In this document: positions 1,187-60,370 of the stretch, one piece after another
Layout of the letters: every line of letters begins with the position of its first letter
Numbering within the stretch: the first letter of the stretch is position 1
NCBI GenBank assembly: GCA_965213925.1
Contig: OZ243927.1
Location: 1,984,001-2,048,000, forward strand
Source of the DNA: Trueperaceae bacterium
GTDB lineage: Bacteria > Deinococcota > Deinococci > Deinococcales > Trueperaceae
Direction: 5' to 3'
Length of the DNA: 64,000 bases
Notes under the pieces: generated by a model
The model's database searches: none
Seen by the model: the letters and a program-made list of their open reading frames with translations, nothing else
Told to the model about the DNA's origin: nothing
Made by a program: the position numbers and the translations under genes

Positions 1187-2677
1187 TCAGCGGCACGTCT
1201 CCGGCTGAACGAGGCTCACCTTAGCCGCGTCCGGTCCGCTAGCGCGATTGTTCCTCGTCTCGGCGTCCGGCGTCGTGAGGATGACGCCGAGGTAATAGTT
1301 GCCTTCTGAGCAAGCGGGTAGCTCGAGCGCGGGAACCTCCACACGCACAGAACTTATAGGGTTGAACGTCCACTCGAAGGTGTGGGAGGAGAGCGCGAGG
1401 TCGGCCGTGCTGATCGTGTCGTTCGCCGAAAGGTAAACCGTGCCTATGACCGGACCGCTCACCGAAGACGCGCCGTAGTTGTGAACGAGATAGGAGAGGC
1501 TGCGAGTGCCAGCTTGCGCACCCTCAGCGACGCGCACATCGAGCGCGTGCAGGTCGGCGGCGTCCGGGGTGGCGCGGGTGATGGTCTCGTCTGTCCAGGT
1601 GACCATGGACCGGGTGAGGCGCGCGTCCCACGTCCGACCGAACTTGCCGTTAGAGAGAACCGCCCAAACGACGCCCGACTCGGTCGCGCCGGCCCCGCTT
1701 TCGCCTCCGTAAGAAGACCGCTCGGACCACACCTCGTTGCCGTACCACGTGCCGTCGGGGTTACTCTCGCAGCCGCCGAACGTGCTCACGTCCTCGACCA
1801 TGTTCTCGCCGTTAAAGGGCGACGCGGGCGCGGCGGGGTAGCTGAGGTAGCCGAACGCACCCTCCGTAAAGAAGGCGCAGCGGTCGCTCGCGCCGTACCC
1901 GCGCCAACCCGTGAGAGCCCCGATGGGCCGCTCGAGCCTGATCCAGCCCACGTCCCAGTCGAAGTCGCGCGCTTCGCGCCAGCCTCCCCAAACGTAGAGC
2001 TGCGCCGCCACCGCGCCGCCCCAGGGTGCTGTCCCTTCCCCGTAGCCCGGCACGACGGTGGTTTCCACGTTATAACCGCTGTCATGGTCGTACAGACAGT
2101 GCCCTGCGGTGAGCACCCACCGCGGGTCGATCAGCGTGCCCGAGCAGGCCCAGTAGGTGATGTCGCCGCCGCGCTCCTGGCGCGTCAAGAAGACCTTGAC
2201 GTGCTTCGCGTTGGGGGATTGGGTCGGGTCGGCGACTAAAGAGGGTGAGGACTGGGCGCGAGCGAGTTCGCTCAGGGCTGAGCGAAGGTCGTCGCTATCT
2301 CCAGATGACGTCTCGGCATGGTACGCGACTTCGCCCGGTGCAGTCTCGACACGCTCGGTTCTCGTCTGGACGTCGAAGCGCACAACGTCGCCACGTCGCG
2401 AGGGAGGTGAAGCCGCCCCGGTTCGCCGCGGCAGGGGGAGCGGCAGGTACGTCTCGTACGCTTCGCTCTCTAGCCCTTTGGTCTGCAGGTCATTTCGGTC
2501 CGCCGCCGCCTCGTCTTCACCGAACACCGGAACCGAAACGGCGTCTAAGGTCTCCGCTGTCACTCCGTGCCGCGCGCCGCTACGTTCCTCATAGAACACG
2601 TTGTCTAAAGGGATGCTGCTGCTTTGGTTGCAGGCAGTTACGGTAAGTAGTAGTAGTAATGCAACGATGAGCGGCAC
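1187..2677 (-). CDS. Trypsin-like (glutamyl endopeptidase-type) serine protease lipoprotein with a C-terminal CARDB/Ig-like domain
   Basis: Lipobox VTAC; CSGTLIDPRWVLTAGHC (His), DWDVG (Asp), GGESG (Ser); C-terminal beta-rich domain with YLSANDTI...GNYYLGVI...NN. Confidence 0.8.
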   Translation of the reverse strand: MPLIVALLLLLTVTACNQSSSIPLDNVFYEERSGARHGVTAETLDAVSVPVFGEDEAAADRNDLQTKGLESEAYETYLPLPLPRRTGAASPPSRRGDVVRFDVQTRTERVETAPGEVAYHAETSSGDSDDLRSALSELARAQSSPSLVADPTQSPNAKHVKVFLTRQERGGDITYWACSGTLIDPRWVLTAGHCLYDHDSGYNVETTVVPGYGEGTAPWGGAVAAQLYVWGGWREARDFDWDVGWIRLERPIGALTGWRGYGASDRCAFFTEGAFGYLSYPAAPASPFNGENMVEDVSTFGGCESNPDGTWYGNEVWSERSSYGGESGAGATESGVVWAVLSNGKFGRTWDARLTRSMVTWTDETITRATPDAADLHALDVRVAEGAQAGTRSLSYLVHNYGASSVSGPVIGTVYLSANDTISTADLALSSHTFEWTFNPISSVRVEVPALELPACSEGNYYLGVILTTPDAETRNNRASGPDAAKVSLVQPETCR

Positions 2678-2868
2678 GCGGTCTCCTAGTTCTGAATACG
2701 GTGTGCAGACACGCTTTGTCTGGCTTATTCAGAGCTTAAAAAGGAGGGCGTTACGCGGGCGTTCCCGAAGCGGCGAGTCGTGCGGTGAATGGCGGCTCGA
2801 GCCAGCAGCCATCCACCGACCGTTCGCTCAGCGAACAGTCGTACATCTGGGTAAAGAAGGGTCTGAGT

Positions 2869-2905
2869 TTTAGAAAGTCCAGGGTTTAGAAAGTCCAGGG
2901 TTTAG
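2869..2905. repeat. 16-bp tandem repeat (about 2.3 units)
   Basis: TTTAGAAAGTCCAGGG twice, then TTTAG; intergenic. Confidence 0.7.
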
Positions 2906-2950
2906 GACATACTAGTGCGCTGTCCGCTCACCGCATTCAGTGAGCGTTCG

Positions 2951-4381
2951 TCACACCCCATTTGGTGGGTGAAAGAGCCGCCTATAAAGCTCCTGGAACT
3001 GCTTATAGGCTTGCGCCAGCTCGGAGTTTTCATTCGGACGGACGAGCGAACCTTGTGCAAGGGCGAGCGGTACGTCTTCCCCCTGTGACACCGCCGCTAA
3101 GCGCGCCGCGCCGCGCGCGGAGGCGTCGGGGAGGGTAACGGGCTCGAGGTCGACGTTGAGCACATCCGCCAAGAGCTGCTGCCACCTCTCGTCTTTGGTC
3201 CCGCCACCCGCCAAGCGCAACTTGTCTACCGTCTCCTCGGTTGCTTGGAGCGCCGCGAAGCCGTCCGCGATAGAGAACGCCACGCCTTCTAAAGCGGCGC
3301 GGGCGAAGTGCGCTTCTGTGTGACGCCGCGACGCTAGGAGCCAGCCGCCGCGCGCGTCCGGGTTGAGGTGCGGCGTCCGCTCTCCCGTGAGGTATGGCAA
3401 GAAGGTGAGGCCGTCAGCGCCGGGGGCGACACCCTCGAAGCCCTCATACATCTCGTCCCACGTCAAATCCAGAAGTTCACGCGCCCATTCGAGTGCCAAG
3501 CCCGCGTTTTGCAGCGCCGCTAGTTTATAAAACTGACCGCCGGAAGTCGCCCGGAAGAGGTGCAACCCCCTTTCTGGCGCGCCGTCTGGCGTCTCGGTCA
3601 GGAGGACAATCTGCGCGCCGCTACCCACCGTGAGCTGCGCCTCGCCGACGGCGAGCCCGCTGCCGTAAATCGCTGCCGCCGTATCTCCTGCGCCCGTCGT
3701 GACGGGGAGGTCCGCCCTCAGCCCTAACGCCTCCGCCGCTTCGGGCTGGAGCGACCCCGCCACCTCAGCCGACGCTCTGAGCGGGGCGAGCAAGTTCGGG
3801 CGAAGCCCCAAGCGTTCCGTGGTCTGCCCCGCCCAGCGGTCCTCCGCTACATCGTAGAGCAGCGTGCCCGAGGCGTCCGAGGGGTCGCTGTACGCTTCGC
3901 CCGTCAGCCGCAGCCGGAGCCAGTCCTTGGGTTGCAGCGCCCAGCGCGCCCCCTTATAGACCTCCGGCTCGTGCTCGCGTAGCCAGAGCAGCGTCGGCCC
4001 CGCCATGCCTACTACGAGCGGATTGGCGAGGGCGTTGCGCTGTTCTTCGGGGAGGTCGCGGTAGACCGCTAACTGTTCGGCGCTGCGGCCGTCCGACCAG
4101 AGGACCGCGGGGCGCAGCGGGCTGCCGTTATCATCGCAGAGGACGACGCCGTGCATCTGCCCCGAGAAGCCGATCCCGCGGACCTCTTTGCCGCGCTCGC
4201 CTACAGCGTCACGGACGGCCGTCACGGCGGCGTCCCACCACGCTTCGGGGTCGCTCTCCGACCAGCCCGGTCGGGGGGCGTCGACCTCGTAAGTCGCGCG
4301 ACCCTCGCCGACTACGTCGCCGTCCTCGCCGAAGAGCTGCGCCTTGAGTGAAAGCGTTCCCAAGTCGATTCCGAGCCACAT
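2951..4381 (-). CDS. xylB: Xylulokinase (FGGY family), copy 1
   Basis: GIDLGT, FSGQMHG, PKDWLR, SDASGT, PYLTGERTP motifs. Confidence 0.85.
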   Translation of the reverse strand: MWLGIDLGTLSLKAQLFGEDGDVVGEGRATYEVDAPRPGWSESDPEAWWDAAVTAVRDAVGERGKEVRGIGFSGQMHGVVLCDDNGSPLRPAVLWSDGRSAEQLAVYRDLPEEQRNALANPLVVGMAGPTLLWLREHEPEVYKGARWALQPKDWLRLRLTGEAYSDPSDASGTLLYDVAEDRWAGQTTERLGLRPNLLAPLRASAEVAGSLQPEAAEALGLRADLPVTTGAGDTAAAIYGSGLAVGEAQLTVGSGAQIVLLTETPDGAPERGLHLFRATSGGQFYKLAALQNAGLALEWARELLDLTWDEMYEGFEGVAPGADGLTFLPYLTGERTPHLNPDARGGWLLASRRHTEAHFARAALEGVAFSIADGFAALQATEETVDKLRLAGGGTKDERWQQLLADVLNVDLEPVTLPDASARGAARLAAVSQGEDVPLALAQGSLVRPNENSELAQAYKQFQELYRRLFHPPNGV

Positions 4382-4457
4382 AATCTAGGTCACCATAGCT
4401 CAAATCGTCCCGCTTAGAGGTCCGCTTACGAGCCGCATTTCCGCCTCAGCACTCACC

Positions 4458-5870
4458 CTACGCCGCCTCCCCCGCGCGCTTTATGCCGAGCTTGCGGCGC
4501 ATCGCCTCCAAGGGTATCCCTTTCGTCTCCGGCATGACGAACAGCACCCAGAGGAGCTGCAGCACCATGAAGCAGAAGAAGATGGCGAACGTCCCCGCCG
4601 TCGACCAGCCGACCAGAGCCGGGAAAAAGAGCGAGACGACGAAGTTCATCGCCCAGTGCGTGAACACCCCCAGCGACTGACCGCGCGCGCGCACCTCGTT
4701 CGGGAAAATCTCGCTGATAAAGACCCAGATGACTGCGCCTTGACCGAAGGCGTGCGCGGCGACGAACAGCATGAGGCTCACGAGCACGAGCGTATCGGCG
4801 TTGCCGATGGCGGCGGCGGCTTGCGCCGAGCCTCCCTGCGCCTGCTGAAAAAGCTCCCCGAACCGAAAGAACGCATACGTGACCGTTCCTAAACTCAGCA
4901 GATAACCCACCGAGCAGACCAGCATCAACTTGCGCCGCCCAAAGGAGTCGATGATCGCCAGCGCCGCCGCCGTCGCGACGAAGTTCGCCCCGCCGATGAG
5001 CACGGTGTTGAGAAGCGCTGCATTTTCGCCCGCGCCCGCCAGCGTAAAGATGCGCGGCGCGTAGTAGAGCACCGCGTTGATGCCCGAGAGCTGGTTAAAG
5101 AGCCCGATGGCGATGGCTAAGAGAATCGGCGTCCGGTACTTAGCCTGGAACAGGGGGACGCGCCCGCCGCCCGTCTCTTCGTTCAGCTCACGCTGAATCT
5201 TGTCGATCTCCTCGTCGGGGGTGCCCTCATCGGTGCCGGTGCGCTCCATAATCGCGCGCGCTTCGTCCTCGCGGTCATTGGCGATGAGCCAGCGCGGGCT
5301 GTCGGGCACGGTGAAGAGAAAGCCTAGAAAGAGAACCGCGGGCACCGCCTCGACGCCGAACATCCAGCGCCAATCGGAGGGACCCAGCCCCAGCGAGCCG
5401 ATGATGTAGTTTGAAAGCTGCGCGATCAAGATGCCGACGACGATATTGAACTGAAAGGTCGCGGTCATGCGCCCGCGGTACTGGGCTGGGGAGAGTTCGG
5501 AGACGTACATGGGCGCGATAACGGCAGCGCCGCCGACGCCGATACCCCCGATGAAGCGGAACACGATAAAGACCCACCAGTTCCAAGCTAAGGCGCTGCC
5601 GAGCGCGCTCACGAGAAAGAGAAGCGCTAAAACGTAGAGCATCGCGCGCCGCCCGAAGCGGTCCGCCGGGTCGCCCGCGGTGAGCGCGCCGAGGATGGTG
5701 CCTACGAGCGCACTCGAGACCGTAAACCCGAGCCAGAAGTTGGACAGCTCGAAGACGCGCTGCAAGTCGTCGTTGGTGCCGGAAATCACCGCGGTGTCGA
5801 AGCCGAAGAGCAGACCGCCCAGCCCGGCGACGAGCGCGCAGGTGAGTACGTAGCGCTGCTGCGCGCTCAT
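4458..5870 (-). CDS. Sugar porter family MFS transporter (XylE/AraE-like)
   Basis: GGLLFGFDTAVISG, DRFGRR, NQLSGINAVLYYAP, PETKG motifs. Confidence 0.9.
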   Translation of the reverse strand: MSAQQRYVLTCALVAGLGGLLFGFDTAVISGTNDDLQRVFELSNFWLGFTVSSALVGTILGALTAGDPADRFGRRAMLYVLALLFLVSALGSALAWNWWVFIVFRFIGGIGVGGAAVIAPMYVSELSPAQYRGRMTATFQFNIVVGILIAQLSNYIIGSLGLGPSDWRWMFGVEAVPAVLFLGFLFTVPDSPRWLIANDREDEARAIMERTGTDEGTPDEEIDKIQRELNEETGGGRVPLFQAKYRTPILLAIAIGLFNQLSGINAVLYYAPRIFTLAGAGENAALLNTVLIGGANFVATAAALAIIDSFGRRKLMLVCSVGYLLSLGTVTYAFFRFGELFQQAQGGSAQAAAAIGNADTLVLVSLMLFVAAHAFGQGAVIWVFISEIFPNEVRARGQSLGVFTHWAMNFVVSLFFPALVGWSTAGTFAIFFCFMVLQLLWVLFVMPETKGIPLEAMRRKLGIKRAGEAA

Positions 5871-52825: not shown

Positions 52826-53746
52826 TCACATCCGTGTCGTACCCGTTATCCATTCGCGCCACGAGAGCTTGTCGCCGCGTTCGGAAAACTGCCCCTTGTC
52901 CTCGCCGAACTGCATGTAGTTCAAAAACGCGACAAACACAACGCCGCCTAGCGTGTTGCCGAGCACGACGGGGACGAGAAAGCGGAAGAGGTAGTCGCCC
53001 AAGCTCGCGCCGCCCTTAAACATCAAGAAAAGCACCTCGACGGAGCCGACGATGCAGTGGAAGAGGTCCGCTGAGACCTGCAGGTAGATTAAAAGCCAGA
53101 TGAGGACGACCCTCGAGAGCGTGTCCCGCGCCGCGTGAACGAGCCAGACGATGCCCGCCAGAAGCCACCCCGCCAGGATCGCCTTATAGAAAGCGTCCCA
53201 CCAGCCCTCGCTGATGAGGTGTTCGCCAAAGCCTATGGCGGCTTGCGTCGCTTCGGGCGTGAGCACGCCCGTGTAGGCGAGCAGCATCGCAAAAAGCGCC
53301 GCCCCTATGATATTCGCGACCAAAACGGTGCCCCAGATGCGCAAGAGGTCGGGCAGGCTTGCCAAGCGCGTTAAGACGAGCGCCACGGGCGTCAGCGTGT
53401 TCTCCGTAAAGAGCTGGTAGCGCCCTAAAATAAGAAAGATAAAGCCCACCGGGTAGAGCAAGTTGGCGACCAAGCCGCTGCTATCGAAGGGGGCTAGGGC
53501 GGTAAAAACAGCCCGCGCCAAGATGCAGAGCCCCAACACGAGCCCCGCTGTGAGCCCGCTCCAAAAGAGCAGGCTGTTCGAGCGCCCCAGTTCCTCGTCG
53601 GCGGTGGCTAAGACGCGCCTATAGATTTCGTCCAGGTTGAAAAAGTCGGGCACGGCGTCCGCTTCGGCGGGCGCGTCCTGAACGGAATGCGGCACCTCGC
53701 CGGGCGGCACCTCTTGGGCGTCTAACGTCTCGTTGACCTCAGCCAT
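52826..53746 (-). CDS. Formate/nitrite transporter (FNT) family protein, paralog 2
   Basis: YPVGF, QLFTENTLTPV, HCIVGSVE, LGNTLGG. Confidence 0.88.
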   Translation of the reverse strand: MAEVNETLDAQEVPPGEVPHSVQDAPAEADAVPDFFNLDEIYRRVLATADEELGRSNSLLFWSGLTAGLVLGLCILARAVFTALAPFDSSGLVANLLYPVGFIFLILGRYQLFTENTLTPVALVLTRLASLPDLLRIWGTVLVANIIGAALFAMLLAYTGVLTPEATQAAIGFGEHLISEGWWDAFYKAILAGWLLAGIVWLVHAARDTLSRVVLIWLLIYLQVSADLFHCIVGSVEVLFLMFKGGASLGDYLFRFLVPVVLGNTLGGVVFVAFLNYMQFGEDKGQFSERGDKLSWREWITGTTRM

Positions 53747-53917
53747 GAAACCCCTCTCGGTTGCTTCTGGATTGCCTCTCAGTTGCTCGGTGATTTTACC
53801 CTAATGTCGTCACCGCAAGTTTTTCGGAAAGCCGGTCCTATCGGTGCGCTCGAGCGTTTGCACGACTATTCGAAAGGTGAACCTCAACCGCTGCATTGAC
53901 GCTTCAGTAGCGCTCAC

Positions 53918-54104
53918 TACTCTGTCAACTAAAAGATGAGTGATGTCATTCTGAACGCAACGAAGTGGAGTGAAAGAATCTCGTCTTTCATTCCCAACCA
54001 GCCGAGATTGCAAGACGAGACCCTTACGCCTTCGCCGAAGCTTCGCTCTACTTCGTGAACAGGGTGACATCAGTAAGAAGTATCAATACTTAGTTGACAG
54101 TGTA
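53918..54104. mobile_element. Repeat family B (MITE/REP-like), copy 1
   Basis: Terminal inverted repeats TACTCTGTCAACTAA / TTAGTTGACAGTGTA (14 of 15); interior GTCATTCTGAACG...GAATCTCGTC...GACGAGACCCTT...CAGGGTGAC shared with copy 2. Confidence 0.75.
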
Positions 54105-54255
54105 CTCACACGCTGCACAAGTATAAAAGTCTACACGCGCTCCGTTATTCGCGGCTTTACAATTGGCGAGGGATGAGGTAAGTGTTACTACTGCGCCAAC
54201 ATTGAGGCTTTTCTCTTCACTGCGCCTAACTTTATTGATGATACTAGGGAACGAT

Positions 54256-55842
54256 ATGGACAGCGTTCTGTCACAACGTAGCGAGCAAACCTCCGCGCCA
54301 GACCGTGTGCGGCGGGCGCGTATCTTGATCGTCGACGACCAGAACATCAACCTCGTTCTCTTGACGAAACTCTTAGAGCGTGCTGGCTACAGCGAGATCA
54401 AAACGCTCGACGACCCGCGTACCGTCCTCTCTGAAATCGCTAGCTTCAGACCTGACGCTATCCTCCTGGACGTGCAGATGCCGCATATGAGCGGCTTGGA
54501 GGTGCTCGAGACCCTCCGCGCCCAAGGAGACCCCGACGACTACGTCCCCGTCATCATGCTGAGCGCCAATCCGAGCCAAGCGTTTAGGGAGCGCGCCCTA
54601 GAGGGAGGAGCCACCGACTTTTTGCCGCGCCCCTTCGACGCCAGCGAACTCAAGCTCAAACTGCGCAACGCGCTCCATATCCGCGCGCTCCACCAGCAGC
54701 TGCGCGCGCAGAATGCGGTGCTCGCCGAGCAGGTCGAAGCGCGCACGAAAAGGTTAAAAGAGCGCGAAGCTGAGGCTCTTTTGCACGCCGAGCGTATCCA
54801 AAAGCTCGCCGACCTGTCGGTCCAACTAGAGGTCCTGAGTGACCCCCACGCCGTCGCCCGCATGGGGTTACAGACCTTCATGTCGCTGTGGGATTTTGAC
54901 CTAGGCGTCCTATACAAAGCGGAAAGCGATCTCTTGACGCCGATGCTCACGGTAGGAAAAGCGCCGCCACAAGCATCGTACGTGCTCAAGGAGATTGACG
55001 TTGGCGGTACTGGCGAGCTGCATAGGCGCGTCATAAGTCAGGGTAAGCCCGTATTCGTTGCCGACTACAGCACCTGGGAACACGCGACGCCCAGGCTGAG
55101 CGCCACAGGTTTGCGCACGGTGATCGCGTTAGCGCTCAAGGTGAACGGCGCGATATACGCGGCGATGTATATCGGCAAGTTTGGCGGCGTCGCCGAAGTG
55201 GACGAAAACGCGCACAACGTCCTCCAAGCGATTCAGCGCCGCGTCGAGCGGGCGTTAGAGCGCATCGAACTCCTGGAGAACTTGCGCGACACCCGCGAAG
55301 ACGCCCTGCGCGTGGTCGGCTTGACCTTGGAATACCGCGACTACGAGACGAAGGGGCACACCGACCGCGTGACGGACCTCGCGCGGCGTTTGGGCGACGC
55401 GGTCGGACTCGACCAGACCCAGCGCGAGCACCTCTTATGGGGCAGCTACCTCCACGACACGGGCAAGATCGCCATCCCCGACCAGATTTTGCTCAAACCC
55501 GGCAAGCTCACGGACGAAGAGTTCGACTTTATCAAAACGCACGTGACGATGGGCGCGGATATGCTCAGCAACCTCGCCTTTTTGCCGCCTGAAGTGCTAG
55601 GCATCGTCAAGCACCACCACGAACGCTGGGACGGACGCGGCTACCCCGACGGGCTCGCGGGCGAAGCGATTCCTCTTCTAGCGCGCATCTTCTCCATCGC
55701 CGACGTGTACGACGCATTGACGAGCGAGCGCCCCTATAAAAAAGCCTGGACGCACGAGGACGCCATTGCAGAACTCGAGCGGCAGGGCGGGGCGCAGTTC
55801 GACCTCACGCTCATCGACGCTTTCGTCGCCCTGTTCGAGTAA
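54256..55842 (+). CDS. REC-GAF-HD-GYP response regulator phosphodiesterase
   Basis: ILIVDD..., LLDVQMP, GAF-like middle, ETKGHTDRV, LHDTGK, HHERWDGRGYP; start moved to ATG 54256. Confidence 0.9.
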   Translation: MDSVLSQRSEQTSAPDRVRRARILIVDDQNINLVLLTKLLERAGYSEIKTLDDPRTVLSEIASFRPDAILLDVQMPHMSGLEVLETLRAQGDPDDYVPVIMLSANPSQAFRERALEGGATDFLPRPFDASELKLKLRNALHIRALHQQLRAQNAVLAEQVEARTKRLKEREAEALLHAERIQKLADLSVQLEVLSDPHAVARMGLQTFMSLWDFDLGVLYKAESDLLTPMLTVGKAPPQASYVLKEIDVGGTGELHRRVISQGKPVFVADYSTWEHATPRLSATGLRTVIALALKVNGAIYAAMYIGKFGGVAEVDENAHNVLQAIQRRVERALERIELLENLRDTREDALRVVGLTLEYRDYETKGHTDRVTDLARRLGDAVGLDQTQREHLLWGSYLHDTGKIAIPDQILLKPGKLTDEEFDFIKTHVTMGADMLSNLAFLPPEVLGIVKHHHERWDGRGYPDGLAGEAIPLLARIFSIADVYDALTSERPYKKAWTHEDAIAELERQGGAQFDLTLIDAFVALFE

Positions 55843-55862
55843 CCTCTACTCACCTTTCGTCA

Positions 55863-56034
55863 GTGCTACACTCTCCCTCATGAGCCGCAAAGGGTACGAG
55901 TTTTTTGACGACGAACAGGTTTTGGAGACCTACACGTCGCGCAGGAACCTGCCGACGAGCCCGAACGAAACCATCGAATACCCTATCTTCCGGGAGCTGA
56001 TAGGGGAAGTCGGGGGCTTAGATGTCCTTGATTT
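55863..56034 (+). repeat. Left direct repeat (~170 bp): -10 box plus 5' end of the methyltransferase gene
   Basis: Closely matches 59376-59546. Confidence 0.9.
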
Positions 56035-56038
56035 TTGA
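55880..56038 (+). pseudogene. Truncated 5' copy of the SAM-dependent methyltransferase
   Basis: MSRKGYEFFDDEQVLETY...GLDVLDF*, ending at the start of SAM-binding motif I. Confidence 0.85.
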
Positions 56039-56112
56039 GGTTGATAGAGATGGAAGAGGGGAAGGAATAGTAGATAGAAGTACTACCCTCAGTTAGCTGA
56101 ACTCTATTTAGC

Positions 56113-56508
56113 CTATTTTTGGTATTGCCGGAGCAGATATAAGGGTAGAACCCCAACTACCAACCACCCTATAGAAATCCAGACAGCAGGGCTAATAGAC
56201 CAAGAATTAAGTATTTCGTAGACCGGCAACCAAACGAGAGATAAGAGAATGTAACTGCAAGCTAGATATCTCTTATCTCCGTGATCCTTCAGTTTGATCT
56301 TATTTGTACGGTTTGCATAGATTAAGAAGATCAACGCTAAGGTAAACACTGTGAGATTTTCGGAGAAAGTTTCGCCAGAAACCCAGCCCGCTAGAAATGA
56401 GCAGATGAAGAGAACGAAAATCCATGACCACCAATATTTAGTCTCCAAGAGGAAGACGCTTAGAGGTAGACCTAAAAGAAGGAAGGGGAAAATCATCACC
56501 ATAATCAA
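56113..56508 (-). CDS. Small multi-pass membrane protein (candidate immunity protein); may really start at GTG 56573
   Basis: 131 aa, four to five hydrophobic segments; one extra base at 56521-56523 would extend it to a GTG overlapping the upstream stop. Confidence 0.65.
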   Translation of the reverse strand: MIMVMIFPFLLLGLPLSVFLLETKYWWSWIFVLFICSFLAGWVSGETFSENLTVFTLALIFLIYANRTNKIKLKDHGDKRYLACSYILLSLVWLPVYEILNSWSISPAVWISIGWLVVGVLPLYLLRQYQK

Positions 56509-56569
56509 TATTAATGCTTGAAACTAGAAGACCACCAGTGGCGGTAGCCTTCTATCTTTCTACTTAGTA

Positions 56570-58465
56570 TCACCGCTTAGCGCGTTCGCTACTTAGCCTG
56601 CTGTTTGTTCGGTTGATACTCGTTTGCAACTGATCGTTCCTAATTTCCAAATCAGTAATCTCCCGTCCCAGTGAAGTTTGATCGGCAATAGCTTGGTTAT
56701 AACCGTCATAGAATACGTCGCGAGTAGTTTCAGCCTCTTCCAATGCTTGCTCAGCGCTCCGTACTTGCTGCCTGGTTTCTGGCACAATGAATAGATTTAG
56801 GTCTTGCTTACGTCCATAATCATCCGAGTATTGTCTAAGGTAGTCGCTTATACCTGCTGCTGTAGTGGGTGTGCTGCCGGGCGCGGTGACGATTGCAACT
56901 CCTGTACCAACTGCCCTCGCAAACCCCTCAGCAGCGACCTTGAAGGGGGCAATTTTCTCCTCTAATCGCTGTTGCTCCGCCTCATAGTTCGCAAGGTCTG
57001 ACTCTAGCTGCTCGAGATTTTGCTCTTTATCAGCAACGTTCTGAAGGACCCTCTCCTCATTAGCGTCGTAGGAATCGACAAGCTCATTTACAGCTTGCAA
57101 CTCCTCTCGCTTTTCCCCTAACTCAGTGACGACCTCTTCCTGCTCCTCGAGAAGTGCGTCTAGCTCTTCCTCGAGGTTCGCAACGAGTGCAGCGTCGTAA
57201 TTGTCTTCCTCTTCTTCGTCAGAATCACTTCCATCAGGGGGACCATCATCGTCTTCTTCTGGTTCTTCGGGGTCTTCCTCCGGTTCTTCGGGGTCTGGCT
57301 CAGGTTCAGGCTCGGGCTCAGGTTCAGGTTCAGGCTCGGGCTCAGGTGGCGGATCAGGATCATCCCCGGATGAAGGGTTACAGTTGTACGCACACTCAAG
57401 GTCTCCCTGCGGAGTCAGCACTTCCTCGCCTTGAGTGGTAGAAGAACTTTCAGGAGGTAGAGAGGAGATATTTAGCATCTCCTCTAACGTAGCTAAACCC
57501 TGTGAAAATCCAGCGGATACCACTTCCGGTTCGGGGCCACCTGTCAAGTATCCCTCCGCTGCATAAGCGACGGTTTCTCGAGCGAAGATGAGATTAACGG
57601 TTGAGACTTTAAGGCGGTCACCTTTGCAAACGCCAAGCGTATCTCCATGATTTTTCGTGTGCGCTCCGATTGCCGAGAATCCTACAAAAATTGTGTGGGC
57701 GTTTGCAGGATTACCAGGTGGGACGTGGCAGACAGGAAATTTTGAGGAATCATACTTGACAATATTTGCGCCGAGCATTCCTTCGTTACCTAAGATAAAC
57801 TGAGTCAGAATCGCATCGGTTCTTGTAGGAACCTGAACAATGTCAGTATCTTCGTTTTGAACGACAGCAGCATTCTTCCAATCTAATTCGTAGCTAGAGG
57901 CGCGTAAAGCGTCAATCGCAACTTGGGCGTCTTCGCTTTCTTTGATCTGCTGCTCTAACTCCGTAAGAGCAGGAGCGTCATAGAACACTTCAAACTGTGC
58001 AGTTTCATCTAGATATTTCCCGCTTTTCGTTTTGGCTGCCGTGCCCACTTTAGCGATATACTGTGCTCCGGGGCGGGGTTGTACATCGGGACGGAAGTCG
58101 AAAGTCTTGTCATCGTCGCTCCAATTCACCTCTGGATCGATTTGAACCTCTTCCCCCTCCGCAGTCCTCACCTCTAAAGAGGTTTCTACGGAGCGTCGGT
58201 CCATCGGCTCCGTGAAAGAAAATGTAAGCCAGAAGTTGTTGTCGCGCTGAAAAGTCCTTGTTGTTACTTCTACAGAAGAAATGACATCGCTTTGTGTGGT
58301 GACACTAGTTGCATTGGAAGAAGATACGGAACGGTTGCTGCACGCACTTAACACAAGTATAGATGCAAAGATTAGCGTGAACCTGAGTGTTTTCATCTTT
58401 AGTTTGTCTGCTCCCGTCCTCTTTTTGGACTTCCTACGGTTCTTGGCTGTTCGTTTAGGATTCAA
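56570..58465 (-). CDS. Large lipoprotein: Ig-like (Big_5/SbsA-type) domain, CHxPPGN motif, Pro-Glu linker, coiled-coil C-terminus
   Basis: Lipobox LSAC (signal starts at ATG 58396); FSFTEPMDRRSV...WSDDDKTF.F.P...Y..KVGTAAKT; VCHVPPGNPANAHTI...HGDTLGVC; (PE)n; Glu/Gln/Leu heptads. Confidence 0.8.
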   Translation of the reverse strand: MNPKRTAKNRRKSKKRTGADKLKMKTLRFTLIFASILVLSACSNRSVSSSNATSVTTQSDVISSVEVTTRTFQRDNNFWLTFSFTEPMDRRSVETSLEVRTAEGEEVQIDPEVNWSDDDKTFDFRPDVQPRPGAQYIAKVGTAAKTKSGKYLDETAQFEVFYDAPALTELEQQIKESEDAQVAIDALRASSYELDWKNAAVVQNEDTDIVQVPTRTDAILTQFILGNEGMLGANIVKYDSSKFPVCHVPPGNPANAHTIFVGFSAIGAHTKNHGDTLGVCKGDRLKVSTVNLIFARETVAYAAEGYLTGGPEPEVVSAGFSQGLATLEEMLNISSLPPESSSTTQGEEVLTPQGDLECAYNCNPSSGDDPDPPPEPEPEPEPEPEPEPEPDPEEPEEDPEEPEEDDDGPPDGSDSDEEEEDNYDAALVANLEEELDALLEEQEEVVTELGEKREELQAVNELVDSYDANEERVLQNVADKEQNLEQLESDLANYEAEQQRLEEKIAPFKVAAEGFARAVGTGVAIVTAPGSTPTTAAGISDYLRQYSDDYGRKQDLNLFIVPETRQQVRSAEQALEEAETTRDVFYDGYNQAIADQTSLGREITDLEIRNDQLQTSINRTNSRLSSERAKR

Positions 58466-59241
58466 TTCTGGTCTCCACTAGAAGGTGGCTGATGGAGAGA
58501 TACAGGTCGAAGAGATGTTTGAGAACTGGACAGAGAAAAGTTCTGAGCCATGTATGAAGAGTTGAACGCGCCCTCAGGTAGCATTACAGGCCCTTCTACG
58601 AAATCGACAGGGAGAGCCTGAATCCCAACGATGTACTCTTTGCCGTTGATTAGAGAAATATCATCGAACATGTAGGTTGTCGTATTGGTGTAGCCCTTGC
58701 GCACTCCGCGCTTGAGCGTGCCATCTGTAGCAAAAATGTCTAGGAAGTAAGAGTTTGCTCCCTCTGCTGGCTTCCAGGTGACGTCAACTCGGGAATCCGT
58801 CGCATTGATAGCAATATCTGTCGGTGGAGGTAAAATCTGTTGTGCATCGACGGAAACATTGGCGGAATAGGGAACACCATTTACCGTCGTTTCGAATGAA
58901 TAGACTCCTGTGACAAGAGGAAGGTCGTTACCTTCGTTGTCAGAAATTAAGTTGCGCCAACTCCAATGATCGCCTGCTCGATTGAAGCTCGATATTGTGG
59001 TTAGACTCTTGTCGTTGTTCCACCCTTCAGGACCGCTGACTGTTACCTCGATGTCTCCTGTTGAGCCTTCCTCGAGGTCAAAGGTATAGAGTGTAGAGAG
59101 ACCAACACCACCGGGATAGTCCATCGTTCCCGCAGCCACTTGAAAAGCAGCTTTGCTATCGGGTGTTTCAGAGCCTGTGCTACAAGCAGTGAGAAGGGTT
59201 ATAAGGAAAGCGGTTATGAGAATACTTCTTAATCCTTTCAT
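58462..59241 (-). CDS. Lipoprotein with a fibronectin-III-like C-terminal domain
   Basis: Lipobox LTAC; PPPTDI...VDVTWKPAEGANSY...L.NGKEYIVGIQA. Confidence 0.75.
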   Translation of the reverse strand: MKGLRSILITAFLITLLTACSTGSETPDSKAAFQVAAGTMDYPGGVGLSTLYTFDLEEGSTGDIEVTVSGPEGWNNDKSLTTISSFNRAGDHWSWRNLISDNEGNDLPLVTGVYSFETTVNGVPYSANVSVDAQQILPPPTDIAINATDSRVDVTWKPAEGANSYFLDIFATDGTLKRGVRKGYTNTTTYMFDDISLINGKEYIVGIQALPVDFVEGPVMLPEGAFNSSYMAQNFSLSSSQTSLRPVSLHQPPSSGDQN

Positions 59242-59375
59242 AACCAAAAAAATACCGTTCTTATCGCCTTCACTATCACAGAAAACTCACAAAAAGGCTG
59301 GAGTGACCAATCTCACTCCTTTGCCTTTCTCAGTAACGTGGAATTGAGTAGAATTCGTGTAAGCTTGCTTGGCTG

Positions 59376-59546
59376 GTGCTACACTCTTTTCATGAGCCGC
59401 AAAGGGTACGAGTTTTTTGACGACGAACAGGTTTTGGAGACCTACACGTCGCGTAGGAATCTGCCGACGAGTCCGAACGAGACCATCGAATACCCTATCT
59501 TCCGGGAGCTGATCGGCGAGGCTCGAGGCTTAGACGTGCTCGACTT
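59376..59546 (+). repeat. Right direct repeat (~170 bp)
   Basis: Closely matches 55863-56034. Confidence 0.9.
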
Positions 59547-60126
59547 AGGCTGCGGCGAGGCGGCGTTCGGTCGCGAACTGCTAGACAAGGGGATAAGGTC
59601 GTATGTGGGGCTCGAGGCGTCCGAGAAGATGGCGAACGTGGCAGAGGAAAGGTTGGAAGGTCTCAATGCTAGCGTCGTACGCTCAACCATCGAAGCGTAC
59701 GACTTCGCGCCGACCTCTTTCGACCTCGTGATGTCGCAACTCGTTTTTCACTACGTCGCCGACCTCTCGGCGACATTTAGATGTGTGTTCGAAACGCTCA
59801 AGCCGGGTGGCAGGTTCATCTTTTCCGTAGAACACCCCGTCATCACCTCTTCCTCGCAGAGTTTGAAAATGTCCGAGCGGCGCACCGCTTGGCTCGTGGA
59901 CGACTACTTCAGGACGGGCGAGCGCACCCACTCCTGGATGGGCGGCGAGGTGACCAAGTACCACCGCACCGTCGAGGACTATTTCGCCAGCTTACAAGCG
60001 GTCGGCTTCACGGTCGAGCGCCTGCGCGAGTCGCGCCCCGAGCGGGAGCGCAGTGTCGATGAAGAGGAATACAGGCGGCGCTTGCGGATTCCTCTTTTCA
60101 TCTTCTTCTCCGCGCGTAAAGGTTAG
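59392..60126 (+). CDS. Class I SAM-dependent methyltransferase
   Basis: VLDLGCG, FDLVMSQLVFHY, LKPGGRFIFSVEHP, YHRT; start moved to ATG 59392. Confidence 0.9.
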   Translation: MSRKGYEFFDDEQVLETYTSRRNLPTSPNETIEYPIFRELIGEARGLDVLDLGCGEAAFGRELLDKGIRSYVGLEASEKMANVAEERLEGLNASVVRSTIEAYDFAPTSFDLVMSQLVFHYVADLSATFRCVFETLKPGGRFIFSVEHPVITSSSQSLKMSERRTAWLVDDYFRTGERTHSWMGGEVTKYHRTVEDYFASLQAVGFTVERLRESRPERERSVDEEEYRRRLRIPLFIFFSARKG

Positions 60127-60360
60127 TACAGTGTCAACTAAACAATGAACCATGTCATTCTGAACGTAGCCCTACGGCGAGCGTAGGATAGACTCCGCGG
60201 AGTGAAAGAATCTCGTCTTCCATTCCCAACCAGCCGAGATTGCGAGTTACAAAGTTTTGGCGGTAGCCAAACGAGACCCTTACGCCTTCGCCGAAGCTTC
60301 GCTCTACTTCGTGAACAGGGTGACATCAGTAATAAGTAGCAATACTTCGTTTACAGTGCA
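60127..60360. mobile_element. Repeat family B, copy 2, with two small hairpin inserts
   Basis: Ends TACAGTGTCAACTAA / TTCGTTTACAGTGCA; long segment ACGAGACCCTTACGCCTTCGCCGAAGCTTCGCTCTACTTCGTGAACAGGGTGACATCAGTAA identical to copy 1. Confidence 0.75.
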
Positions 60361-60370
60361 ATTAGCGCGC

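Follow-up and report, generated by a model that had tools for sequence, protein, structure and literature searches.

The closest described counterparts of the locus studied here, as far as gene organisation goes, are the sitBAI loci of myxobacteria, whose SitA proteins are lipoprotein toxins, with SitB as accessory and SitI as immunity proteins (PMC5562445). Our locus occupies positions 56113-59247, on the minus strand, of a window of 64,000 nucleotides (nt; the whole stretch of DNA that was analysed) from contig OZ243927.1 of a Trueperaceae bacterium (assembly GCA_965213925.1). Three open reading frames (ORFs) follow one another there head to tail in the order gene 1, gene 2, gene 3, and their products, P0001, P0002 and P0003, are a predicted FN3-like lipoprotein, a large and predicted stalked lipoprotein and a small polytopic membrane protein. 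As in sitBAI, there are three genes, one for a secreted accessory protein, one for a lipoprotein whose type II signal peptide carries a lipobox and a small one downstream, and several divergent copies are present per genome on horizontally mobile DNA (PMC5562445). This likeness rests on gene organisation and not on a sequence comparison with SitA, SitB or SitI. In contrast to SitA, whose C-termini are variable, typically nuclease-like and carried on related N-terminal regions, P0002 ends in an architecture-conserved hairpin without a toxin-domain match, and whereas SitI1 is a SUKH-family immunity protein, the third gene here encodes a protein with four transmembrane (TM) segments; SitA orthologues are described only in species with traAB (PMC5562445).

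The Cdz system resembles the locus in combining cell-surface-associated proteins that have Gly-rich hydrophobic segments, as 4 of 13 relatives do here, with a small multi-TM protein without homologues, CdzI, for which three TM domains are predicted; CdzC and CdzD, however, are small and exported by a type I secretion system, while the proteins described here are lipoproteins with no type I secretion genes nearby and P0002 lacks GxxxG (PMC5380434). Long two-helix antiparallel coiled coils that hold a functional element at a distance, as the stalk of P0002 would, are found in PrgA, in EnvC/SteB/PcsB and in the stalks of colicin Ia and the E-type colicins; no sequence relation to any of these was found, and colicins have a globular pore or nuclease domain of its own, for which there is no counterpart here. 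The two-TM glycine-zipper outer-membrane lipoproteins of the SlyB/Pcp type (PF05433, PF13488) are similar in that they, too, have a hydrophobic hairpin rich in Gly and Ala, which might lodge in a single membrane leaflet. Unlike in SlyB/Pcp, the Gly-rich loop of the present family lies at the tip of a coiled coil of ~100 residues, far from the anchor, and is polar in some members. A likeness to the S-layer protein SbsC is confined to the optional N-terminal Big_5 domain.

We tentatively read the locus as a mobile, stalked envelope or adhesion module of an undescribed family, serving as a tether, adhesin or recognition structure and not as an enzyme or a released toxin, a reading that we prefer while giving it somewhat less than an even chance. 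The three genes have a GC content of 41-50%, against 58% for the genome, and the low-GC block that holds them (56035-59389) forms a cassette of 3.35 kb. Two more cassettes with paralogous large and FN3-like lipoproteins lie in the same genome, a fourth intact one lies in another genome of the same family (G296), and a profile of the head of the large protein matches 4 of 364 genomes of the phylum. The cassette is horizontally acquired and mobile, and its distribution is patchy. No curated family, solved structure or paper describing the module or the family was found in the databases and literature searched. The earlier note on this DNA had proposed an undescribed system of contact-dependent antagonism or adhesion, and part of this stands: the locus is an undescribed, horizontally mobile three-gene extracytoplasmic module without annotation in Pfam, NCBIfam, PADLOC or PHROGs.

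Anatomy and divergence of the large lipoprotein

The three ORFs reported in the earlier note are present on the minus strand of 56113-59247 with all the motifs named for them, and the Ig-like domain, CHxPPGN, LTPQ, CAYNC, Pro/Glu run and two helices described for the second lipoprotein could each be located:

58462..59247, minus strand: gene 1, FN3-like partner lipoprotein, 261 amino acids (aa); TTG start, alternative ATG at 59241
56570..58396, minus strand: gene 2, large stalked lipoprotein, 608 aa; ATG at 58396
58340..58396, minus strand: signal peptide and lipobox LSAC (Cys19) of gene 2, read from the sequence
57983..58273, minus strand: immunoglobulin (Ig)-like Big_5 domain (PF13205), residues 42-138; Pfam, above gathering score
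57392..57979, minus strand: conserved alpha/beta head (mid-domain), residues 140-335, the family signature; profile A2
57620..57742, minus strand: CHxPPGNPxNAHT...HGDxLGxC module, residues 219-259, a Cys/His mini-domain of ~40 residues; alignment
57380..57418, minus strand: LTPQG...ECAYNC, residues 327-339, a Cys-x4-Cys knot at the head/stalk border; sequence
57221..57379, minus strand: acidic Pro/Glu-rich spacer, residues 340-392, predicted disordered; sequence and per-residue model confidence (pLDDT) of 34-57
56906..57217, minus strand: helix 1 of the antiparallel coiled-coil hairpin, about residues 394-497; AlphaFold2 and sequence
56789..56944, minus strand: hairpin tip, residues 485-536, which holds the Gly/Ala-rich stretch AVGTGVAIVTAPGSTPTTAAGIS; sequence
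56573..56788, minus strand: helix 2 of the hairpin, residues 537-608; AlphaFold2
56531..56545, minus strand: small hairpin between genes 2 and 3; hairpin scan
56113..56508, minus strand: gene 3, small polytopic membrane protein, 131 aa, with four to five hydrophobic segments

The overlap of stops and starts that had been described for the operon holds at the junction of genes 1 and 2, and there only if gene 2 is begun at an alternative TTG at 58465, which yields a protein of 631 aa with 23 additional basic residues and a TTGA overlap with the TGA stop of gene 1; it does not hold for genes 2 and 3, which are separated by 61 nt.

The anatomy of the family was read from an alignment of 13 sequences (A3), and an AlphaFold2 model of the gene 2 product (mb375c7108f44; 13-row alignment, mean pLDDT 72.9) was confident for the Ig domain, the head over residues 140-313 and two long helices, and of low confidence for the spacer and the tip. 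In 12 of the 13 aligned large proteins the signal peptide ends in a Cys, the thirteenth, P0052, having no N-terminus, and the products of genes 1 and 2 are both predicted lipoproteins with type II signal peptides. The Big_5 match of P0002 (residues 57-132, E=3.9e-5) is just above the cut-off, at 24.8 bits against 23.6, and that of the relative P0059 reaches 32.5 bits; the domain is optional, 7 of the 13 aligned members being without it. In the model it consists of beta strands with pLDDT up to 94, and a VIA match to a domain of the S-layer protein SbsC (Z 12.5, root-mean-square deviation (rmsd) 2.2, 96 residues aligned) was accompanied in the fold search by matches to alpha-2-macroglobulin domains.

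The head is the conserved core of the protein and was modelled with pLDDT 78-96 over residues 140-313, and no sequence match to it was found in Pfam, NCBIfam or the PDB. At its centre lies the Cys/His (CH) module, which in P0002 has CHVPPGN at residue 223 and follows the consensus [VI]CHxPPGNPxNAHTIxVGxxAxxAHLxHGDxLGxC (examples are P0004, P0017, P0022, P0058, P0082 and P0150); C223, H224, T235, A242, H246, H250 and C257 are invariant in all 13 aligned sequences, and Cys and His residues conserved in this way point to metal binding or to a mini-domain stabilised by disulfides. After the invariant set comes a conserved strand of the form G-x-S-x-G-T-x-(T/S)-L-E-E-L-T-T. When the head profile A2 (234 positions) was scored against 1.84 billion representative proteins, 3960 matches were obtained at E<=1e-3, 541 at 1e-10 and 33 at 1e-30, most of which cover only positions about 80-130, that is, the CH module. 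Secreted proteins of widely differing architecture contain the module, singly or in tandem arrays with acidic linkers, and among the matches listed the largest number of matched stretches in a single protein is 16. It has no match in Pfam, NCBIfam or the PDB sequence library, and none of the papers listed by a full-text literature search describes it. The CH module is a widespread extracellular building block without annotation in the libraries searched. Word-indexed protein searches with the whole of P0002 and with residues 140-335 returned five matches each, mostly carriers of the CH module or low-complexity sequences.

Of the 150 listed A2 matches, only 13 cover 150 or more of the 234 positions without a break. 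They comprise the large protein of the third cassette of the same genome and 12 proteins from other sources; the ten of these 12 that were looked up all belong to clusters of one or two metagenomic sequences named 'hypothetical protein'. The full-length family is thus real, though rare. At the border of head and stalk P0002 carries LTPQG at residue 327 and ECAYNC at residue 334, in a region of low model confidence, and similar L-x-P-Q-G-P...C-x(3-5)-C strings occur in only some relatives. The spacer that follows has its counterpart at the same position in the relatives, where it is acidic or Gly/Ser/Asp-rich.

The C-terminal part was modelled as a helix over residues 402-501 (pLDDT 88-95) and a second one over residues 539-607 (pLDDT 77-94), with a tip in which pLDDT falls below 50 at 498-521 and 526-535 and in which the Gly/Ala-rich stretch FKVAAEGFARAVGTGVAIVTAPG starts at residue 485. 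The earlier note had called this stretch hydrophobic. A Gly/Ala-rich stretch between the helices is indeed there, but it is only moderately hydrophobic: its best 19-residue Kyte-Doolittle mean (KD19) is 1.28, below the TM threshold of 1.6, its longest uncharged run is 23 residues, and it has neither a GxxxG motif nor a Cys. Across the 13 sequences KD19 is at least 1.6 in four (P0059, P0136, P0029 and P0147), which have a hydrophobic hairpin able to span a bilayer as P0002 does not, 1.25-1.45 in four that include P0002, and below 1.1 in five. A GxxxGxxxG zipper is present in 4 of the 13 and absent from P0002. A glycine-zipper lipoprotein was considered and rejected, P0002 having 0 GxxxG motifs and neither P0002 nor the seven relatives scanned giving a Pfam zipper match; a sub-threshold C19orf12-like match in P0052 was the sole match of the zipper scan.

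The tip loop is the most variable part of the family. It is bracketed by paired Cys in 9 of the 13 sequences, P0002 not among them. In one subfamily, again without P0002, helix 1 opens with a Cys and a C-terminal N-C-x motif supplies a second, a pair that would hold an antiparallel hairpin together at its base. A different subfamily carries paired motifs in their stead (G-P-S-Y-D...F-K-x-x-N-x-I-D), which are likewise absent from P0002. This placement of Cys is consistent with an extracytoplasmic, oxidising environment and with antiparallel helices. Of the 13 aligned members, 11 retain the architecture of the hairpin; P0136 stops inside the tip and P0147 has a shorter form.

One check that the earlier note had suggested for its toxin proposal, a constant N-terminus joined to variable C-termini, came out negative. 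Mean pairwise identity is 55% in the CH module and 21-26% in the rest of the head (78 pairs each), 18% in helix 1 (78 pairs) and 16% in helix 2 (66 pairs); the divergence of the family is a smooth drift at about an even rate along the protein and not a recombination break. The structural check suggested for the C-terminal region, a fold search with the hairpin, returned generic antiparallel coiled coils only, the best being the dynein stalk (Z 13.8), followed by PrgA, SteB, EnvC, YscO, LXG, IpaB and colicin stalks at Z 10-12.6, and Z scores of this size (10-13.8) fall in the range that the tool treats as non-specific for long helices. The toxin-related matches among them were the coiled-coil parts of colicins Ia, E1, E2 and E9 and of IpaB (Z 10.5-12.1), which stood among many unrelated hairpins. 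A profile built from eight C-terminal hairpins found no free-standing hairpin protein at E<=0.001 among 8000 candidates of 100-412 aa. A complex prediction of the hairpin (residues 392-608, 13-row alignment) with P0003 scored 0.00, a value that counts neither for nor against binding.

Partner lipoprotein and small membrane proteins

Gene 1 had been described as encoding an FN3-like lipoprotein, and its product is predicted to be one. Its signal peptide closes, as read from the sequence, with the lipobox LLTAC, and in the mature protein a beta-rich domain that carries the motif GPEGWN precedes an FN3-like domain; the match to Pfam fn3 (PF00041) is weak and below threshold (E=0.0029, 18.2 bits against a cut-off of 25), and the family profile matches the solved Fn3-like protein 3mpc (E=5.5e-4). 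Paralogues with 30-36% identity are found in both other cassettes of the genome, and a lipobox is present in four of four partner proteins. In the ESM Atlas P0001 is closest to Bacteroidota clusters (0.94).

The two lipoproteins appear to be functionally tied, because two metagenomic relatives fuse them in one chain, gene fusion being a usual sign of physical or functional partnership, and the label 'accessory' given earlier to the gene 1 product agrees with this. In P0018 (514 aa) the head (residues 26-270) is joined to a domain with 36% identity to P0001, which stands in the place of the hairpin, the protein having none, and in P0147 (681 aa) a P0001-like domain (32% identity) comes first, followed by the head and then by the hairpin. 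These fusions show, at the level of sequence, the head and the FN3-like unit as the probable core of the system and the hairpin as a replaceable appendage. Searches with the partner profile confirmed one relative among 23 pattern matches in genome contigs, arranged as in the G296 cassette, two among 59 in metagenome contigs, and 0 among 16 in the viral contigs of IMG/VR. One metagenome contig (L028) holds an ORF (1577-4486) in which the two-domain unit of gene 1 lies inside a lipoprotein of at least 970 aa with other Ig-like regions, and the GPEGWN plus FN3-like unit is therefore a reusable extracellular module. A second metagenome match proved to be an unrelated glycosidase-type protein, and a weak P0001 match at C1:4404892 is not a cassette. 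The head profile, for its part, found four loci in viral contigs, all with isolated CH modules only.

Gene 3 does encode the small polytopic membrane protein that had been described. Neither a family nor a relative of P0003 was found in Pfam, NCBIfam, PADLOC, PHROGs or the genome searches, and the ESM Atlas gave nothing above 0.85. Analogous 4-TM ORFs of 140 aa and 171 aa lie in cassette 2 and in the G296 cassette, so that three of the four intact cassettes have such a gene, and the small TM proteins of these three have no detectable similarity to one another. One cassette has no such gene, and where it is present its position varies, directly after the large gene in two cassettes and after the FN3-like gene in one. 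In two cassettes a terminator-like hairpin separates the large gene from the membrane gene, more clearly in cassette 2 (L024 3931-4004), which hints that the membrane gene may be expressed at a lower or separately controlled level. The cassette that lacks a TM gene also has the least hydrophobic tip of the four (KD19 0.52), a single observation that hints at a connection between tip and membrane protein. A search of 127 further genomes of the family for orphan homologues of P0003 or of the 140-aa protein brought up nothing beyond a decayed cassette in the sister-species genome G002 and marginal matches; a weak relative of the 140-aa protein in G296 sits in an unrelated high-GC context and was set aside. 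P0001 and P0003 have no PHROGs match and P0002 has only a weak coiled-coil match to tape-measure proteins, PADLOC likewise gave only weak matches of the coiled-coil type, and a unimolecular phage spanin was rejected, there being no endolysin or phage gene in any cassette and no PHROGs support for a phage origin.

Candidate functions of the cassette

As a stalked envelope module, the cassette would work as follows. A lipid anchor would fix the large protein to a membrane, and its head would pair with the FN3-like lipoprotein so that the two lipoproteins act together. The acidic spacer and the hairpin would hold the variable and often disulfide-clamped loop away from the anchoring membrane, with an estimated reach of the hairpin of about 15 nm (about 100 residues in helix 1 at 0.15 nm per residue), and the tip loop would then dock on or dip into a further surface, which could be the opposite membrane of the envelope, here of diderm type, or the 4-TM protein or a neighbouring cell. 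The sequences themselves show the gene structure, the order of domains, the family membership, the fusions, the insertion as a cassette and the patchy distribution; the localisation, the pairing, the tip contacts and the biological role of the cassette proteins we infer. Several points weigh against this reading. In four of the 13 relatives the tips are TM-grade glycine zippers (KD19 >=1.6; GxxxGxxxG), and such tips, together with a linked polytopic gene in three of four cassettes, also resemble a membrane-active toxin with its immunity protein; strain-specific, low-GC, multi-copy cassettes are as typical of conflict systems as of adhesins. The head may have an enzymatic or ligand-binding role, and the anchor site may be the inner membrane, the outer membrane or the surface.

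The function proposed in the earlier note was a toxin of this kind, displayed on a lipoprotein, membrane-active and accompanied by an accessory lipoprotein and a membrane immunity protein. The gene order resembles that of sitBAI. On this reading the tip would insert into the membrane of a target or sister cell and dissipate the potential while the 4-TM protein protects the producer. The locus is parallelled by sitBAI in having an accessory secreted protein, a lipoprotein, a small downstream gene and three divergent copies per genome (PMC5562445), by the small membrane proteins without homologues, CdzI among them, that confer immunity to glycine-zipper bacteriocins (PMC5380434), and by the ionophore toxins, whose cognate immunity proteins are highly polymorphic (PMC11630599). 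The mutual dissimilarity of the three small TM proteins is what polymorphic immunity proteins would exhibit, the cassettes are strain-specific and mobile, and both the zipper tips of four relatives and the pairing of a missing TM gene with the least hydrophobic tip point the same way. However, an alpha-pore-forming toxin with its immunity protein agrees poorly with a family that has no break between a conserved N-terminus and a variable C-terminus, in which the tip of P0002 has no TM-grade segment, 5 of 13 tips are polar, and P0018 has no hairpin at all. Nor does the TM gene always adjoin the large gene: it follows the FN3-like gene in G296, is absent from cassette 3 and in two cassettes is parted from the large gene by terminator-like hairpins; orphan immunity genes were not found in the 127 other family genomes, save for the decayed G002 copy and marginal matches. 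No toxin family was matched in Pfam, NCBIfam, PADLOC or PHROGs, and no delivery machinery (TraAB or secretion systems of types V, VI and VII (T5SS, T6SS, T7SS)) was seen in the flanks read, no genome-wide search for it having been made. The toxin is weakened by these results to a possible but not the best-supported explanation, and we consider it rather unlikely. The wider proposal that the cassettes represent lipoprotein-based contact-dependent antagonism or kin discrimination of Deinococcota, with a stalk-borne, variable and sometimes glycine-zipper loop that inserts into membranes, the unrelated 4-TM proteins as cognate immunity determinants and recombinase-free spread, we also hold to be unlikely; if true, it would be analogous in organisation to myxobacterial sitBAI but employ a new effector principle.

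Two further explanations were considered. The cassette might be a surface- or phage-exclusion module carried as mobile cargo, its lipoprotein pair masking or altering the envelope and so blocking phage or DNA transfer, on the model of exclusion lipoproteins and of the coiled-coil surface-exclusion protein PrgA. Strain-specific, low-GC, multi-copy cassettes with fast-diverging exposed parts would suit this role, one of them adjoins IS200/IS605 remnants, and the hairpin resembles the PrgA stalk (Z 12.2, rmsd 2.7, 170 residues), within the range for any long helical hairpin. Against exclusion, no prophage, plasmid or conjugation genes were seen beside any cassette, none of the 16 partner-lipoprotein pattern matches in IMG/VR was confirmed, viral contigs (four) give only isolated CH modules, and there are no specific PADLOC or PHROGs matches, so that we regard it as improbable. 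Less probable still is a regulatory coiled-coil adaptor, in which the hairpin would dock on the loops of the 4-TM protein or on another membrane complex and control an envelope activity, as the hairpins of EnvC, PcsB and SteB couple FtsEX-type membrane complexes to cell-wall hydrolases. The fold matches EnvC (Z 12.4), SteB (Z 12.4), PcsB (Z 10.2) and Cg1735 (Z 11.3), and a membrane-protein gene is linked in three of four intact cassettes, but the Z values are in the range flagged as non-specific for long helices, the cassette encodes no hydrolase or ABC domain, and the module is accessory and sporadic where a housekeeping part would be expected. Should the stalked module prove to be merely a structural adhesin, it would be an ordinary, though unannotated, family of surface proteins; should the tips insert into membranes, the series of hairpins with tips from polar to glycine-zipper would represent a novel means by which lipoproteins connect or attack them.

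Insertion sites and distribution of the cassettes

The suggestion that the locus belongs to an island is borne out by its GC content, given above, and by a direct repeat of 157 nt at 90% identity. The features at the edges of the cassette are:

55878..56034, plus strand: direct repeat, left copy, which duplicates the 5' end of a methyltransferase gene in truncated form; 90% identity
59390..59546, plus strand: right copy, the 5' end of the intact S-adenosylmethionine (SAM)-methyltransferase gene (59390-60126); 90% identity
59300..59319, strand not applicable: terminator-like hairpin, bidirectional, that separates the cassette from the promoter region of the methyltransferase gene; hairpin scan

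The left copy begins about 15 nt before the ATG and ends at the cassette edge. The two copies are nearly identical over the first ~100 nt and diverged over the last ~60 nt, as would be expected of a recombination junction or after partial gene conversion. With a repeat of this kind, long, diverged and derived from the end of a host gene, the cassette may well have entered by homologous recombination with a relative's DNA.

The window cassette was compared with G002 only, and cassettes 2 and 3 with both sister-species genomes, G001 and G002. In G002 a distance of 127 bp separates the methyltransferase gene from a formate/nitrite-transporter-like gene (53000-53763 in the window), and therefore 53764-59391 is extra DNA in the window genome, a composite insertion of 5.6 kb in which a response-regulator/HD-GYP gene and the methyltransferase fragment accompany the cassette. 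Neither in this extra DNA nor beside it is there an integrase, transposase or tRNA gene, and with no Rfam match and no tRNA in or beside the cassette there is no tRNA-linked integration site. The response-regulator/HD-GYP-type gene (54163-55842) has normal GC and is absent from the G002 site, where only ~70%-identical paralogues are found elsewhere in the genome.

Cassettes 2 and 3 are clean insertions, their flanking genes lying 110-220 bp apart in G001 and G002; neither has flanking direct repeats, and no boundary motif is common to the three cassettes of the genome, which have GC contents of 41-53% against 58%. The gene order is large gene, 140-aa 4-TM gene and FN3-like gene in cassette 2, large gene and FN3-like gene without a membrane gene in cassette 3, and large gene, FN3-like gene and 171-aa 4-TM ORF in G296. 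Three clean insertions in one genome make the family a tractable case for studying the spread of accessory surface modules in which no mobility genes are visible. G002 also has a cassette of the cassette 2 type in decay (L022, G002:C4:860856-864206): its large gene is broken up into several short ORFs, its 4-TM gene is cut short, and the DNA of its FN3-like part retains 74% identity. The G002 species can dispense with the cassette and is losing it. Among sequencing runs, only the probable source sample was positive for the cassette, two runs of the same label being without usable cover, and no RNA run was listed as positive.

Directly upstream of the G296 cassette (G296:C11, L025 60-739) lie an IS200/IS605-type tnpA and the start of a tnpB-like ORF; these remnants are the only mobility-related gene seen beside any cassette. 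On both sides of the wider region of the window cassette, at 53907-54106 and 60116-60367, there is a dispersed intergenic repeat of ~190 nt, which has an internal inverted repeat and no Rfam match. A 211-nt query of this repeat gave 54 matches in its own genome, many copies are present in G002, and it looks like an element of the repetitive extragenic palindromic (REP) or miniature inverted-repeat transposable element (MITE) type.

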